DNA of 6,205 nt. It comes from a virus (taxonomy: Duplodnaviria; Heunggongvirae; Uroviricota; Caudoviricetes). Below the pieces are notes generated by a model, which saw only the letters and a program-made list of their open reading frames with translations, was not told where the DNA came from and did not search any database. A program made the position numbers and the translations under genes. Shown piece by piece: positions 1 to 6,205 of the stretch. How positions within the stretch are numbered: position 1 is the first letter of the stretch; each line of letters begins with the position of its first letter. The DNA lies in IMG/VR virus record IMGVR_UViG_2534681662_000012, one strand, 5' to 3'.

Positions 1-181
1 CTGCAATCACCTTTATCGCCAGCCTTCCGGACAGCCTTAATTTCAGCCGCTGCTGGCGAACAATAAGCGCCACAGCCCGGCGATAACGCTTTCCCTCCTC
101 AGAGATAAAATATGTGCTGCCACGGCGTCGCCAGTAGGTGTTCACCGTCGGCGGGTAAGGCAAAACAAACTCTATACGCAT
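1..181 (-). CDS. rusA: RusA-family Holliday junction resolvase, 5' part only (about 60 codons; gene continues past window start)
   Basis: Hand translation of the minus strand from ATG at 181..179 gives MRIEFVLPYPPTVNTYWRRRGSTYFISEEGKRYRRAVALIVRQQRLKLRLSGRLAIKVIA with no stop before position 1. This matches the RusA N-terminal pattern as I remember it (LPxPP-S/T-xNxY..R....-S/T-xEGxxYRxxV). SD AAGAGG (193..188) sits 6 nt upstream of the ATG, immediately after the TAA stop of the upstream ORF (196..194). Not in the ORF track because it has no in-window stop. Confidence 0.75.
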   Translation of the reverse strand, partial: MRIEFVLPYPPTVNTYWRRRGSTYFISEEGKRYRRAVALIVRQQRLKLRLSGRLAIKVIA

Positions 182-193
182 CAGTAACCTCTT

Positions 194-811
194 TTACCCA
201 AGCACGCCAGTTGCAAAGGCGTGATCAAGAAAACGAAAAATTAAATCAACCTGAGAACCATGCATTTCTTCGAACGCCAGCGGATCCGCATGAAGCTCGT
301 TGTGATGCTCCCGACACAGCGGTAGCGTGAAAATATCGTGAGATTTTGTCCCCATTCCGCCCTGACCATGACCAATCAGGTGATGGGGATCGTCGGCTGG
401 CTTACCACAACACGCACACGGCTGTGTCTTCACCCAGCGTGTGTATTTCTCGTTAACCCAGCGGCGACGTTTAGGTCGTTTCATGAAAGATTCCGGAGAC
501 TCCGGATCTACGGCAATGCTGACCACCGTCTTTTCCTGTGGTGCGTTCTGTTGCTGGTGGACGTGAGGCAGCGGCGCAAGATTTTTTGTGCGCTGTTTCA
601 GTATGCTGGTGGCGGTCTGCTCTCCCGGTACGATGTCGCTTTCGCGGTACACCGAGCGGATTTTTTCCGCACGCAAGCCCAGCGAACGACGTAATACCGC
701 TTCCGGTAGCGCGTCCGCCACCTGATTGCGGACCGCCCACCAGGATAATTCAGCCAGAGATAATTCACGCTCCTGCGTACCGCTTATTGCGTGACCGATG
801 ACGTCAATCAT
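194..811 (-). CDS. Cys/His-rich lambdoid-prophage protein, DUF968/YdfU-like C-terminal region (205 aa from the internal ATG)
   Basis: Track ORF 194..1021, trimmed to the internal ATG at 811..809 (MIDVIGHAISGTQERELS...). The upstream 70 codons (MLLVVLGHCLTGCCAILNPASGHTAIII...) are Cys/Thr/Ala-rich, look non-protein-like, and overlap a better frame. The C-terminal block WVKTQPCACCGKPADDPHHLIGHGQGGMGTKSHDIFTLPLCREHHNELH is a Cys/His metal-binding-type motif that I associate with the DUF968 family; this is recollection, not a search result. Stop TAA at 196..194. Confidence 0.6.
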   Translation of the reverse strand: MIDVIGHAISGTQERELSLAELSWWAVRNQVADALPEAVLRRSLGLRAEKIRSVYRESDIVPGEQTATSILKQRTKNLAPLPHVHQQQNAPQEKTVVSIAVDPESPESFMKRPKRRRWVNEKYTRWVKTQPCACCGKPADDPHHLIGHGQGGMGTKSHDIFTLPLCREHHNELHADPLAFEEMHGSQVDLIFRFLDHAFATGVLG

Positions 812-1241
812 CCATGCTGACAGTTTTGATGAGCAAGTTGCCGAGTGATTCGGATGTCTGGTCACGCAGCTGGTTGTCGCAGTGCCAGCACAACACCATT
901 GCGCCGGTACCATATCGGTGAATAACGGTTTCGCTGTGATGATAATCGCCGTGTGGCCACTGGCAGGATTTAATATGGCACAACAGCCAGTCAGACAGTG
1001 CCCCAGCACCACCAGCAGCACGAATCACCCGCTCATCGCTGAAAAATGGCAGTAATGATTTATCCTCCGCCAGCGGCTGGCGAACAGCAGGAACGACTCC
1101 GGACGGCAGACCGCGCATGCTTTTCGGTTCCGGCTCCACCAGAACTCGAGGGTTATGAAATACCTGCATGGATTCACGGCCCGGTTTTAGCACCACCAGC
1201 CCAAGTTCCGGTACCGGAACAGGTCGAAGTAACACCCGCAC
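804..1241 (-). CDS. Hypothetical Cys/His-rich prophage protein (145 aa); possibly the N-terminal part of a split YdfU-like gene
   Basis: Track ORF 804..1241. Start is GTG at 1241..1239, preceded by GGAGG (tctGGAGGtaacGTG on the minus strand) that overlaps the TAA stop of the upstream ORF at 1245..1243. The product ends ...CQWPHGDYHHSETVIHRYGTGAMVLCWHCDNQLRDQTSESLGNLLIKTVSMDD. Its TGA stop (806..804) overlaps the ATG of the next ORF (811..809), giving minus-strand ATGATTGA. Confidence 0.55.
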   Translation of the reverse strand: MRVLLRPVPVPELGLVVLKPGRESMQVFHNPRVLVEPEPKSMRGLPSGVVPAVRQPLAEDKSLLPFFSDERVIRAAGGAGALSDWLLCHIKSCQWPHGDYHHSETVIHRYGTGAMVLCWHCDNQLRDQTSESLGNLLIKTVSMDD

Positions 1242-1590: not shown

Positions 1591-1620
1591 AGGAAAAAAC
1601 AAAACCCGCCGAAGCGGGTT
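1591..1620 (-). terminator. Rho-independent terminator downstream of hok
   Basis: Perfect 7-bp stem (1603-1609 aacccgc with 1614-1620 gcgggtt) and a 4-nt loop cgaa. On the minus strand the hairpin is followed by the U-rich tract UUUUGUUUUUUCC (complement of 1591-1602). It lies about 70 nt 3' of the hok stop. Confidence 0.6.
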
Positions 1621-1688
1621 ACGTGCGGGTGCGTTGAGGATGCCTGCCACATAAGAGGTGGCGAGGGATTTCTCCCTCGCCTGGTCTC

Positions 1689-1844
1689 TTACTCCTCAGG
1701 TTCGTAAGCTGTGAAGACAGCGACCTCCGTCTGGCCGGTTCGGATTCGTACCTCGCAGAGGTCTTTCCTCGTTACCAGTGCCGTCACTATGACGGTTAAA
1801 CAGATGACGATCAGGGCGATTAACATCGCCTTTTGCTGCTTCAT
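1689..1844 (-). CDS. hokD: Hok/Gef-family type I toxin, HokD/RelF-like (51 aa)
   Basis: The internal ATG (1844..1842) of track ORF 1689..1901 gives MKQQKAMLIALIVICLTVIVTALVTRKDLCEVRIRTGQTEVAVFTAYEPEE. I recognise this as the Hok family (single TM helix, then the conserved RKDLCEV.IRTGQTEVAVF block) and, from memory, as identical or near-identical to E. coli HokD (RelF). SD AAGGAG sits 9 nt upstream. The 19-codon in-frame N-terminal extension in the track ORF was not adopted. Confidence 0.85.
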   Translation of the reverse strand: MKQQKAMLIALIVICLTVIVTALVTRKDLCEVRIRTGQTEVAVFTAYEPEE

Positions 1845-2116
1845 AGCCTGCTTCTCCTTGCCTTTCGGCACGTAAGAGGCTAACCTACATGTGTCTAGCA
1901 TGAAATTGGCCTCAGATTAATGTTAAGCGTCTTGCAGGACGCGTAATGTTAACTGGGGCTTTTCTCTATCTGCCCTTGGTGTTCATGCCCGAGGCAGATA
2001 GCCTCAAGCACCCGCAGCCATTCTACTTAACTACCGTTACCTCGCCAATATGAAATCAGTCAGAAAGACGATCCATAAGAACAATAGCAAGATTTCTTAA
2101 TGGAGATGGATGTAAG

Positions 2117-3604
2117 CTAAATATTTTGGCTCGGTCTGCTTTCTATTAAATGCAACCTGTATTTTAAAGCATGATGTGTCCTAAACTCATTTTGTAGATT
2201 AATTTTTAAGTTAGGCAAACTACTTACGTATTCCCATCTACCTTGTTTTTTTTGTCCGATAAGTGAGTTATCAAACAGGAAGTTGATATATTGACGTATC
2301 ACCCCATCAGAAATACCTGCAAATTCATTACGGCACTTCTCGGAAAAATCATTAAAATCGAATGTTTCTACTTGGATAGTTTGAAGAACAGTTAGTAAGT
2401 TCTCAATTTCAGGGAATTGGTTGGACCATTCATCAATCACCTCATTGTACACACTTATAGATGCTTCACGGTCAGCTTCATAAAGCTCATTGGAAGTGTA
2501 AAGACCTGAGACATTATTTTTATGACATGCCCTAATTTTGTTGAAGTAGACAATAATATCCCTAGGCCTAAAGAAAGAACGGCGACATATATATTTAAAT
2601 GGAGGAGTCCCCTGCCTAACGAATGAAACCTCAAATACTTTCCCAGATCTGTCCTTTTCGTCATCTAATATGAGATCATTAGGTTTGTATTTCTTTATCC
2701 TCTCATAATACATATCGTTTAGATTATTTTCATTCCATGAGATTATGATAGCACTATCTTGCAATAATTTGTTTTTATCATTGAATTTCAAAGAATGATA
2801 AATATCCGTTCGTAGGAAGGGAATGACTTTTAATTTATCATTGAGGCGTTCATCAGATGCTATGTTTCTACAGACATTTAGCAGATTTATTAAAACCTTA
2901 CTATATTCTTCAATTTGCCCCTCTAGCCAGTTTTCGTCTAATTGGTCAAGGGCGATAATTATTTTTTCATTACCAATGTTATCTTTAAAAATTTTTTCAA
3001 AATACGTAAGCAACGTGAAAGCATTAGCTCTTAGCTTTTGCTTTAGCTGAGCATTCTCAGCAACTTCCTCTAACGAAATTTCACCTGCGTCCAATGATAC
3101 TTCATTAAGACCAGCACTGGGCCCTTTTATGGTTTTTAATCTGGTTATTTTTGAAAACAAAACCTCCCTAAGAGTTGGGTCGGGACTACCAAAGATAGTT
3201 TTGATATAATTATGTGCCCACGTTAGATCTTTGTTTAAAGTCTCTCCAGCATCATTTTTTATTTCAATAAGTTTAGATAATGCCTTAATATAAAAAAGAT
3301 ACATCCAACTTTTTTGATAAGCGGAAAGTTCTCCAGCCATTGCATCCTTGTAAAGTTGATGGGCTGGCCATGGATAGTCACTAAAATTTAGACATACTGA
3401 GTAAAACCCGTTGAGATTGGCTGGGTTTCCTCTTCTAAGGTGTTCATAAATGGCTGTTTTACCAGTACCTTTTCTTCCAAGAACCAACCAAGCCCTACTT
3501 TCAATAATATCCTTTATCGCCGGTAGCTTAAAAAAATAGGTCTGTAAGTCCCGATCTGTTTCTGCTGAAACTTGAAATTCTGGTAGCCAGTCTCTAATGT
3601 CCAC
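2117..3604 (-). CDS. P-loop NTPase, 495 aa, STAND/KAP-like motif pattern; AT-rich horizontally acquired gene; candidate phage-defence/abortive-infection protein
   Basis: Track ORF 2117..3604; an uninterrupted 495-codon frame in an otherwise AT-rich segment. Walker A WLVLGRKGTGKTAIYEHL near residue 40; Walker B-like IIALDQLDENW near residue 220 (hhhhD-x-hDE, as in STAND/NACHT-type NTPases; the roughly 175-aa A-to-B spacing is more like KAP-type). In-frame start is GTG at 3604..3602 with SD AAGAGGA about 4-5 nt upstream. G+C in hand-counted 60-bp lines is about 27-35%, against about 57% in a flanking backbone line. Confidence 0.85.
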   Translation of the reverse strand: MDIRDWLPEFQVSAETDRDLQTYFFKLPAIKDIIESRAWLVLGRKGTGKTAIYEHLRRGNPANLNGFYSVCLNFSDYPWPAHQLYKDAMAGELSAYQKSWMYLFYIKALSKLIEIKNDAGETLNKDLTWAHNYIKTIFGSPDPTLREVLFSKITRLKTIKGPSAGLNEVSLDAGEISLEEVAENAQLKQKLRANAFTLLTYFEKIFKDNIGNEKIIIALDQLDENWLEGQIEEYSKVLINLLNVCRNIASDERLNDKLKVIPFLRTDIYHSLKFNDKNKLLQDSAIIISWNENNLNDMYYERIKKYKPNDLILDDEKDRSGKVFEVSFVRQGTPPFKYICRRSFFRPRDIIVYFNKIRACHKNNVSGLYTSNELYEADREASISVYNEVIDEWSNQFPEIENLLTVLQTIQVETFDFNDFSEKCRNEFAGISDGVIRQYINFLFDNSLIGQKKQGRWEYVSSLPNLKINLQNEFRTHHALKYRLHLIESRPSQNI

Positions 3605-3921
3605 ATTTTCCTCTTTACATTACATTACCTTTATGTTTTTCCAAAATAAATCAAAGTCATATGGCGTATCAAGTTTTTTTGATTATTTATGAGCTCATAC
3701 TCAAAAAAATACTAAATCTAATTTATCTTACGTTAACTAAAGATTTCATATGTTAGTATGCTCAAGCAATGCTACTGCTGGAGTCTGATGATATCCGTTA
3801 TACACTAATTGCCACGCACACAAGCGACATCAGTTCATGGCACAAAGCAGACAACCACGCTACCTCTACCCTATGCCATGAAAATGTCAATTTACATCTT
3901 AACTAATGCACTTTAATCTCG

Positions 3922-4344
3922 TCACTTAAATAGATACCGAACATTTCCCTGATAAAACGACAATATGCGCTGCATAACTTCGCTCTTCTGGCACTCGCGA
4001 CAGATTATGTTTAGACGACTGTCGTAGCGACGTATTTCTCCATCAGGTAGTGACCAGATAAGGTCCGGATCAACCACAGCGGGTTTCTTCACCTTCGCCC
4101 TAGAGAGTTTTTTGCGGGCATTTTGCCAGTCCTTTCGTGCCTGTTCAGACGGGAATAACCCGTAGCCGGAGTTGTATACATAACCACTGGCAACCAGCTC
4201 TCTGGCAAGAATGCTCATCAGATATCTTGTCGCACCTGTTTTAGCTTCCAACTGTCGTAATGTCTCGCGACCGCTCTGGCGCACAAGTTCGACCACCTGC
4301 TCTTTAATTTTTTCCCGCTCTTCCTGTGTAAAAACTTTTGCCAC
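3922..4344 (-). CDS. Hypothetical prophage protein, 140 aa
   Basis: Track ORF 3922..4344. GTG start at 4344..4342 with a strong SD AAGGAGG 4 nt upstream (ttAAGGAGGacttGTG on the minus strand). Backbone-like G+C. The product (MAKVFTQEEREKIKEQVVELVRQSGRETLRQLEAKTGATRYLMSILARELVASGYV...) is basic and could contain an HTH, but I do not recognise a specific family. Confidence 0.65.
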   Translation of the reverse strand: MAKVFTQEEREKIKEQVVELVRQSGRETLRQLEAKTGATRYLMSILARELVASGYVYNSGYGLFPSEQARKDWQNARKKLSRAKVKKPAVVDPDLIWSLPDGEIRRYDSRLNIICRECQKSEVMQRILSFYQGNVRYLFK

Positions 4345-4384
4345 AAGTCCTCCTTAAAATTACCTCATGACCTGAAATCAACAC

Positions 4385-5350
4385 TTATCCCCTGAAACCA
4401 GGCGGAATTTCTGTATCCGGTTCAGAAATATGATTCACACAACGCTGTACAGGTGAACGTCCCAAGCGGATGACCAGTTCGTCCCATTTTTCGCGGAGTT
4501 TTGACGGGCTCATGATGTTTTTTACCCAGAATGGATCTCGCTGTACCCGACCAAACATTTCGCAAATTTGTCTGTGGCTTCTGCCATCCAGCATCCGCAT
4601 TGTGCGCACGTCATTGGCCCAGGCTGTCCAGTTAGGCTCTTTTGGTCGCATGATCTCTCCATCGTCGCTGGCAGCCTGTTCGTAAAGGTTCACGATCCGC
4701 CCCCAAATCCACTGCGCACACGCCAAATCCTCCCTGCTACCCCACTGGCGTTTTTTCGCACTAAACACAACCGCGTCGGGGTTCTGGGTTAAAAAATCCT
4801 GTTCAGCGGTCTGCGGGTCCGGTTGCGAAGCTTCCGGACGAAAAGTGTTTTTATTCTCTGTAGTAATCTCTGTTGTATTCTCTGTAAGATCATCAGGCCA
4901 TTTTGACCCGATGACATTGGGTCGTTTTGAACCAATGGAGCGTTTCATTTTGACCTCTTCCATCGTGTCATTTTGACCTGATGGAGCGGCGCATTTTGAA
5001 CCGATGGATTCGTTCAATTTGCCACCATCTAAAAGCTCGCTCCCATAGTTGATCGTGTAGAAATTGGTCATATCGCGCTTTGATTTATTGAGCTTTTCAC
5101 AACGCAAAAGCCCCAGCGTTTTCAGACTTGCAAACGCGCGCTTTAAAGTTGACTCTGACCAGAATGGGAACTGTTCCAGCCATTGTTCCGTTGTGTTGTA
5201 AATCCAGCGAACACCATCACATTCCATGCCGGAATTGGTATCTCTCAACCAGTAATGCAACTGCTGCAACACAATGGCTTCATTTAAGCCAATCTTCATC
5301 GCAAGCTGTGTGTTTATAACCAGTGGGCGTTCAGCAAAAAGAAGGCTCAT
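4385..5350 (-). CDS. Phage replication initiator (lambda O-like / replisome organiser) with an internal origin
   Basis: Track ORF 4385..5404. The track start at 5404 is TTG with no SD, so I prefer ATG at 5350..5348 (weak GGATGG SD), which overlaps the upstream ORF stop by about 20 nt; the start remains uncertain. The N-terminal region looks like a winged-helix DNA-binding domain; the middle is encoded by iteron repeats (repeated SIGSK / VIGSK peptide); the C-terminal domain is Trp-rich. An internal ori is the hallmark of O-type initiators. Confidence 0.7.
   Translation of the reverse strand: MSLLFAERPLVINTQLAMKIGLNEAIVLQQLHYWLRDTNSGMECDGVRWIYNTTEQWLEQFPFWSESTLKRAFASLKTLGLLRCEKLNKSKRDMTNFYTINYGSELLDGGKLNESIGSKCAAPSGQNDTMEEVKMKRSIGSKRPNVIGSKWPDDLTENTTEITTENKNTFRPEASQPDPQTAEQDFLTQNPDAVVFSAKKRQWGSREDLACAQWIWGRIVNLYEQAASDDGEIMRPKEPNWTAWANDVRTMRMLDGRSHRQICEMFGRVQRDPFWVKNIMSPSKLREKWDELVIRLGRSPVQRCVNHISEPDTEIPPGFRG
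4898..5012. repeat. Iteron array (putative prophage origin of replication) inside the initiator gene, with an adjacent A+T-rich short-repeat tract at 4841-4890
   Basis: Five direct repeats of about 18-20 bp with 23-24 bp periodicity. Plus-strand copies start near 4900 (attttgacccgatga), 4924 (gttttgaaccaatgga), 4948 (cattttgacctcttccatcg, degenerate), 4968 (cattttgacctgatggagcg) and 4992 (cattttgaaccgatggattcg); consensus CATTTTGA(C/A)C.GATGGA. Immediately downstream in gene orientation is the tract 4851-4888 with three copies of tctctgt(a/t) (ttattctctgtag, taatctctgtt, tattctctgtaag). Confidence 0.6.
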
Positions 5351-5852
5351 AATTCCATCCAGCTTTTTGTTGGTATTGCTGTCGATACGCAAGTTTGAAA
5401 GCAATTGCTTTTTCTATAAGTTCGTCAGTTTCACGATCCACTACGGCAGGATCAGCAAAAAGCAGTCCGGACTCCACCACATCGCCATATTCTTTGTTTA
5501 ACCCGGCGATCATGTACGTGATGCTTTTTCCGTCACTAATTTCACGATACAACCTGAAATCATTAATCCGGATAGCCTCCATAATTGCAGGCACTAGCGC
5601 CGTGAACTTTTCACGCTTATCCCTAGTGTCGATAGCCTTCCAGCGTTCGAATATCTTCACTCGATTAACGCCAAGCGCTCGCTGATCAACCGCGCCACCT
5701 TCATCTGTGACACGCTGAACATCGATGTTCGGGCGCTCTTTCAAAGCCCAGAATGCTTCAGTGATTAATATCGTCGCCTGCTCCTGTGTCATTCCTGGTC
5801 GACATATCCAGGCATCCAGAGCCTCACGAGCCTGTTCAGGAGTGATTTTCAT
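5331..5852 (-). CDS. Hypothetical prophage early-region protein, 173 aa
   Basis: Track ORF 5331..5852 with ATG start at 5852..5850 and backbone G+C. The product (MKITPEQAREALDAWICRPGMTQEQATILITEAFWALKERPNIDVQRV...) is not recognised by me. Its start lies 37 bp from the IS1 left end. Confidence 0.65.
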   Translation of the reverse strand: MKITPEQAREALDAWICRPGMTQEQATILITEAFWALKERPNIDVQRVTDEGGAVDQRALGVNRVKIFERWKAIDTRDKREKFTALVPAIMEAIRINDFRLYREISDGKSITYMIAGLNKEYGDVVESGLLFADPAVVDRETDELIEKAIAFKLAYRQQYQQKAGWNYEPSFC

Positions 5853-5889
5853 TGTTCAACCGCCCCGCCCGCTTCGTCTTACGATATTC

Positions 5890-5912
5890 GGTGATGCTGC
5901 CAACTTACTGAT
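5890..5912 (+). repeat. IS1 left terminal inverted repeat (about 23 bp)
   Basis: GGTGATGCTGCCAACTTACTGAT at 5890-5912 matches the IS1 terminal inverted repeat as I recall it. The other end and the target-site duplication lie outside the window. Confidence 0.85.
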
Positions 5913-5944
5913 TTAGTGTATGATGGTGTTTTTGAGGTGCTCCA

Positions 5945-6205
5945 GTGGCTTCTGTTTCTATCAGCTGTCCCTCCTGTTCAGCTACTGACGGGGTGGTGCG
6001 TAACGGCAAAAGCACTGCCGGACATCAGCGCTATCTCTGCTCTCACTGCCGTAAAACATGGCAACTGCAGTTCACTTACACCGCTTCTCAACCCGGTACG
6101 CACCAGAAAATCATTGATATGGCCATGAATGGCGTTGGATGCCGGGCAACAGCCCGCATTATGGGCGTTGGCCTCAACACGATTTTACGTCACTTAAAAA
6201 ACTCA
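5945..6205 (+). CDS. insA: IS1 InsA (N-terminal 87 codons; truncated by the window end)
   Basis: Hand translation from GTG at 5945 gives [87 protein letters not shown] with no stop before 6205, matching IS1 InsA (zinc-finger plus HTH). Not in the ORF track, which shows a different-frame ORF at 5916..6128. Confidence 0.9.

Follow-up and report, generated by a model that had tools for sequence, protein, structure and literature searches.

What does an IS1 element that begins next to the start codon of a prophage early gene interrupt, and are the genes beside it cut off from their promoter or provided with a new one? The DNA that raises this question, hereafter the window, is the entire 6,205-bp contig AQDT01000037.1 of draft assembly GCA_000355595.1, which is on record for three samples. 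We compared it with IS-free relatives and with collections of genomes and proteins, thereby identifying the interrupted gene and weighing the consequences for the genes downstream.

The IS1 element

The right end of the window consists of IS1 sequence, in and beside which the following features were located.

5890..6205, plus strand: left 316 nt of IS1, truncated by the contig end (identity to full-length IS1 copies)
5890..5912, plus strand: IS1 left terminal inverted repeat (IRL), GGTGATGCTGCCAACTTACTGAT (direct reading)
5945..6205, plus strand: insA, 87 codons, GTG start at 5945, open at the window end (Pfam, NCBIfam)
6196-6202, plus strand: A6C motif AAAAAAC for -1 frameshifting, at the end of insA (located in the sequence)
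5881..5889, no strand assigned: the 9 bp adjoining the IRL, ACGATATTC (breakpoint from the comparison with two IS-free relatives, CFSAN061763 and ATCC 43896)

A preliminary description of the window had set the left end of IS1 at 5890 and its distance from the ATG (5852) of the neighbouring gene at 37 bp, with insA on the plus strand and opposed to the prophage genes. These positions were borne out, as the IRL begins at 5890, the gap is exactly 5853-5889, and all other prophage genes are on the minus strand. The 316 nt differ from two 768-bp IS1 copies of another E. coli genome at only 5/316 and 7/316 positions (98.4% and 97.8% identity), and this is therefore no chance match; the IRL is identical to that of three full IS1 copies in E. 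coli QL57EC. The insA product carries an N-terminal zinc ribbon (Pfam Zn_ribbon_InsA PF03811, E 1.4e-21) and a C-terminal HTH (Pfam HTH_Tnp_IS1 PF12759, E 1.3e-30). Its 89 bits against NCBIfam transpos_IS1 are under the cut-off of 100 bits because the window holds only positions 1-78 of the 199 in that model. IS1 matches were present in 5203 of 5426 complete E. coli genomes (megablast), and the sequence stops at IS1 nt 316, the assembler having failed to get across the repeat. The target duplication made by IS1 is 8 or 9 bp (PMC12428005). If this is a simple insertion, ACGATATTC would be the expected duplicated copy at the right end of the element.

The interrupted gene is dicC

Three prophage reading frames adjoin the element and overlap one another.

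5836..5889, minus strand: 3' remnant of dicC, codons 59-75 (EYRKTKRAGRLNNENHS) plus TGA (same as in IS-free relatives)
5331..5852, minus strand: ydaT-family gene, 173 aa, ATG at 5852 (Pfam YdaT_toxin; relatives)
4385..5350, minus strand: replication protein O-like gene, 321 aa (relative ATCC 43896)

When positions 5331-6205 were searched by megablast against the 5426 complete E. coli genomes, many 100% matches ended at window position 5890, and the annotation of these matches named a 'toxin YdaT family protein' beside a 'Cro/CI family transcriptional regulator', or DicC. The IS-free sequence itself ends at 5889, because the last matching base, a G, is also the first base of IS1. In CFSAN061763 and ATCC 43896 the site reads ...CGATATTC followed directly by GTCATAAAC..., and translation of the relatives' gene puts the IS1 point, which is the boundary between these two stretches, between dicC codons 58 (D) and 59 (E). 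The intact gene of the IS-free relatives is 228 bp long, on the minus strand, and encodes a Cro-like protein of 75 aa. A tblastn search with the relative's protein matched 5836-5889 to its residues 59-75 at 100%. Both in the relatives and in the window remnant the dicC stop codon lies 17 nt inside the start of the ydaT-family gene. The full dicC product of ATCC 43896 scores 165 bits against NCBIfam DicC (cut-off 130), matches Pfam P22_Cro at residues 3-58, and can be aligned with P22 Cro (PDB 1rzs) from residue 1 to residue 58. Our comparison thus places IS1 inside a coding sequence, at the predicted end of the P22-Cro-type domain, and not in a promoter or spacer.

The comparison with IS-free relatives, which the preliminary description had itself named as a check, thus identifies the interrupted sequence as the 75-aa Cro-like dicC. 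That description had taken whatever lay upstream of the 173-aa gene to be separated from it by IS1, offering an immunity or early promoter region and an upstream gene as candidates. The separation stands and so does the upstream gene, which is dicC, broken at codons 58/59; an immunity or promoter region at the junction does not, as the 37 bp are dicC coding sequence. Nor does the element sit in a pre-existing intergenic spacer that leaves the regulatory elements intact, a case that had been raised against a regulatory effect: IS1 is inside a gene, between promoter and operon.

A separate observation concerns the variability of dicC. Many database variants of DicC (P0031-P0039 and P0053) are identical through ...EGRAMRL and unrelated in sequence after it, and the point of divergence corresponds to residue 42 in the product of the interrupted gene. 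The N-terminal halves of DicC vary among immunity types, while the 3' half and ydaT are conserved. Together, these patterns suggest that the cro gene contains a recombination joint or the boundary of a repeat.

Prophage context and frequency of the insertion

In the relatives, the genes int-xis-exo-ydfD-dicB-...-ydfA and a dicA-like repressor gene follow one another on the plus strand, and divergent from them are dicC, the ydaT-family gene, O, DUF977, a cargo gene, hokD, (rem), a hypothetical gene, DUF968, rusA and the gene for antiterminator Q. There dicC is divergent from the CI-like repressor gene, and the spacer between the two bears the promoter candidate. With this gene order the prophage is a Qin-type lambdoid one. 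In the literature on K-12 Qin, DicA and DicC form a CI/Cro-like bistable switch in which dicCp is equivalent to P_R (PMC10448788). The dicA-dicC region of K-12 described there is the same locus, and the insertion site aligns, in K-12 derivatives, with the junction of the dicC 3' end and the start of ydfX. The genes past dicC have decayed to remnants (ydfX) in K-12 Qin, whereas in the window ydaT and the O-like gene are intact and separated from dicC by IS1. The window prophage also differs from K-12 Qin in having no rem and another cargo gene.

The site is uninterrupted in 2484 of the 5426 complete E. coli genomes, and the window's IS1 junction occurs in 0 of the 5426. Since the downstream genes are intact and the site is uninterrupted in so many genomes, the data point to a recent, strain-specific insertion. 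A single high-coverage match to 5331-6205 was obtained among the complete genomes, that of E. coli QL57EC (NZ_CP172108.1). There too, IS1 disrupts the early-right module of a Qin-type prophage, but it lies inside ydaT and is accompanied by a deletion that reaches the lysis genes, which makes it an independent event. In that locus (L002, positions 5761-7216), the IS1 copy interrupts ydaT and connects it with a ydfR-like lysis gene that is itself truncated. The whole region from replication to Q is missing in an IS1-bounded deletion, and three IS1 copies are found within 6 kb.

Genes downstream of the insertion

The preliminary description had treated the 173-aa reading frame as the first gene of the early region. 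This needs correction, as dicC precedes and overlaps it by 17 nt. Because the preceding 37 bp belong to dicC, the 173-aa frame is the second gene of the early-right operon, at the cII position. The protein passes the Pfam YdaT_toxin cut-off modestly (26.1 bits against 21, residues 59-131) and has 100% aa identity with the product of the relatives' gene, which is annotated as a YdaT family protein. Against the solved structures, the CP-933P YdaT structure 8bt1 gave a borderline E = 0.071 and 3c4r gave E = 0.049; no solved-structure match at E <= 0.01 was found. The putative YdaT-family assignment is thus based mostly on the family threshold and on position. YdaT has been described as a functional equivalent of CII (PMC9986795, PMC8630535). 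The next gene of the same operon is the O-like gene, which overlaps the end of ydaT by 20 nt and whose product matches, at 100% aa identity, a protein of ATCC 43896 annotated as 'phage replication protein O'. Farther downstream, protein identities to the relative are 99.3% for DUF977 and 99.8% for the ATPase.

Whatever follows IS1, ydaT and the O-like gene are not adjacent to dicCp now. Our preferred explanation, to which we assign a probability of about 0.75, is an insertion of IS1 at dicC codon 59 of a Qin-type lambdoid prophage that uncouples ydaT and the O-like gene from dicCp.

Promoter-like sites around the junction

On the minus strand of ATCC 43896, the sole promoter-like site of the region is TTGACT-16-AATAAT (10/12), located in the dicA-dicC spacer; this candidate is some 205-230 bp upstream of where the insertion point maps on that relative. 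In the window two promoter-like elements were found, both in the IS1 end.

5897..5924, plus strand: inward promoter-like site CTGCCA-16-TATGAT (consensus scan)
5898..5903 (read 5903->5898), minus strand: outward -35-like hexamer TTGGCA in the IRL, with no partner -10

The inward site is the only promoter-like site in 5300-6205, is also present in a full IS1 copy, and coincides with the known position of the insA promoter in the IRL. The same consensus scan of 5300-6205 gave no minus-strand promoter-like site between IS1 and ydaT or within ydaT.

The preliminary description had raised the possibility that the IS end contributes a hybrid outward promoter. By this explanation, the outward -35 of IS1 would combine with flanking DNA and drive ydaT and the replication genes independently of DicA and DicC. 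There is precedent for it in the passage of PMC8764528 that cites Prentki et al. 1986, according to which IS1 ends carry an outward -35 able to create hybrid promoters; as in the cases treated there, including afaA in ST131, the IS1 end with the outward -35 is here close to a gene start, at 37 bp, and the TTGGCA box is present at 5903->5898. In that passage, however, activation is reported solely with a -10 at the right distance, and unlike those promoters the window has no -10 at a workable distance. The hexamers 15-19 bp from TTGGCA are GTAAGA, TAAGAC, AAGACG, AGACGA and GACGAA. Their agreement with TATAAT ranges from 0 to 3 of 6 bases, the T at position 6 is missing from all of them, and the best, TAAGAC at a spacing of 16 bp, reaches 3/6. 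With no minus-strand promoter in the scanned interval either, we consider a hybrid promoter very improbable and reject it on spacing and on the quality of the -10 at 15-19 bp; the outward -35 known from IS1 ends is there, with no usable -10.

As a side observation, full IS1 copies contain an antisense promoter-like site, TTGCCA-18-GATTAT (9/12), at about IS1 nt 661-632 (6662->6633 on the minus strand of L002). If active, this site could in principle send transcription through the IRL toward ydaT.

Simple insertion, rearrangement or artefact

Predicted DicC::IS1 products were computed for a 9-bp duplication (87 aa), an 8-bp duplication (67 aa) and no duplication (84 aa). The 87-aa fusion was absent among the best 120 of 5483 matches in the protein collection, a range in which its rank would be expected to fall; full-length DicC variants, and unrelated genes with the same IS1 tail, were found among these 120. 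The predicted right junction, composed of the IS1 right inverted repeat (IRR), 0-12 nt and dicC sequence, was not found in genome_contigs. The exact left junction was not found in the species-representative genomes, the JGI metagenomes or the 5426 complete E. coli genomes.

An alternative that we hold to be unlikely, yet of some weight, is that IS1 marks a rearrangement: an adjacent deletion or inversion, or recombination between two IS1 copies, would have deleted the 5' part of dicC together with the immunity region, or carried them elsewhere, in which case the DNA past IS1 would have no relation to the prophage. That neither a fusion of DicC with the IRR end of IS1 nor a partial protein appears in the best 120 of the 5483 matches is in keeping with such an event, given that GCA_000355595.1 is indexed in that collection. 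So is the QL57EC prophage, where IS1 in ydaT has been joined to the lysis region with the intervening DNA deleted, and from which it follows that IS1-bounded deletions happen in this module. But a missing called protein is weak evidence, as the contig may have been short or filtered, or the protein clustered under a full-length representative; moreover, the left junction resembles a clean joint between IRL and target, and the content of the window fits a simple insertion equally. The absence of the fusion protein mildly favours either a rearrangement or the loss of a small contig.

We give hardly any credence to an assembly artefact, in which a chimeric contig end would join the prophage to a collapsed IS1 repeat. 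It is true that the junction is at one end of a short draft contig, and that none of the complete genomes and other collections searched contains it. However, the joint is exactly at the first base of the IRL, like a real transposition product and unlike a random chimera, the same contig is on record for the three samples, and contigs that end within IS copies are the normal result of real insertions.

Other features of the contig

The left part of the window shows several features of its own. The rusA sequence at window 1-181 (minus strand) is cut by the left contig end, so that 60 of 124 residues are present at 93% identity to the relative; with rusA on the left and IS1 on the right, both contig ends are at repeats (lambdoid prophages and IS copies, respectively). 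The DUF968 (ydfU-like) gene at 194-1241 (minus strand) is in two reading frames with a break near 816-826, residues 1-142 and 140-349 of the relative's 349-aa protein matching frames -3 and -1, and it is probably a frameshifted pseudogene. At 1539-1594, rem is absent; the interval is 56 bp, compared with 422 bp with rem in ATCC 43896. The Rem protein of K-12 Qin is a DicA antirepressor (PMC10448788). We considered loss of rem as a strain-specific deletion and rejected it, since the same rem-less layout recurs in other genomes at about 95% identity, which makes natural mosaicism the explanation. To the left of about 1540, the window is only 93.8% identical to ATCC 43896, and this fall in identity places a mosaic joint near 1540. 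ATCC 43896 is otherwise the closest relative, with 99.84% identity over window 1595-5890.

The cargo gene at 2117-3604 (minus strand) and its flanks (1900-3920) are low in GC, at 32-37%. Its 495-aa product is a P-loop ATPase that NCBIfam places in the Sll1717 family at 250 bits; PADLOC gave a weak match only (PDC-M28C, E = 4e-5). In CFSAN061763, the slot between DUF977 and hokD is occupied by a DUF4209 gene on the opposite strand. This position has the look of a moron or defence slot with variable content.

Likely effect on the early-right operon

IS1 insertions are strongly polar, and an internal terminator of the element is classical knowledge. Jordan, Saedler and Starlinger in 1968 and Hubner, Iida and Arber in 1987 are the names reportedly connected with IS1 polarity or the internal terminator. 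A simple scan of a full IS1 copy revealed no intrinsic terminator, and termination would accordingly have to depend on Rho. As in the classical polar insertions in gal and lac, IS1 is here in the promoter-proximal gene of a polycistronic unit, where termination in the element would be expected to abolish distal expression. The differences are that the target is the early-right operon of a prophage, that the polarity is here a prediction, and that the window contains the left part of IS1.

In the intact relatives, dicCp in the dicA-dicC intergenic region would drive dicC, the ydaT-family gene, the O-like gene, DUF977 and onward. With a simple insertion, IS1 would stand between dicCp and ydaT with insA directed at the immunity region. 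Transcription from dicCp would reach the right end of IS1 first, translation would be lost after about 26 codons, and the transcripts would terminate in the roughly 0.7 kb of antisense IS1 RNA that is left untranslated. ydaT would also be deprived of any translational coupling to dicC. Such a loss is plausible because ydaT, for which no clear ribosome-binding site was seen on reading the sequence, overlaps dicC. Polar silencing of the cII-like and replication genes would be the most likely outcome in view of the strong polarity of IS1 insertions: the early-right genes (cII plus replication) would be silenced, not activated, and the prophage would be unable to replicate. It is plausible in this light that the element cripples early transcription and helps to fix the prophage, as the preliminary description had proposed. 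A simple insertion would also retain DicC residues 1-61, followed by a 26-residue IS1-encoded tail, GNDSNLLIVFYVQIMPDDFVMQLHRF, in the predicted 87-aa product, which might remain active in the DicA/DicC switch.

A more elaborate version, in our judgement improbable, regards the insertion as a selected domestication step instead of random decay, with a working DicC(1-61)-tail protein and an intact switch over dicBF, the cII-like and replication genes being permanently disconnected and read-through from insA favouring repression. The protein may work because the IS1 point is the exact end of the Cro fold. If this were true, insA read-through would be antisense to dicC and sense to dicA, and the switch would be biased to repression.

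Implications

An insertion of IS1 in dicC that uncouples the operon from dicCp, our preferred explanation, has consequences chiefly for annotation. Draft contigs that end in IS copies conceal half of such an event, and the correct label for the 37 bp upstream of the ydaT-family gene is a pseudogene fragment of dicC (cro-like), not a promoter. For the prophage, a defective early-right operon should be recorded. This prophage adds a further case of IS1 inactivating a Qin-type prophage, with little significance beyond annotation: the disruption of a cryptic prophage operon by IS1 is a known kind of event and an ordinary step in prophage decay.
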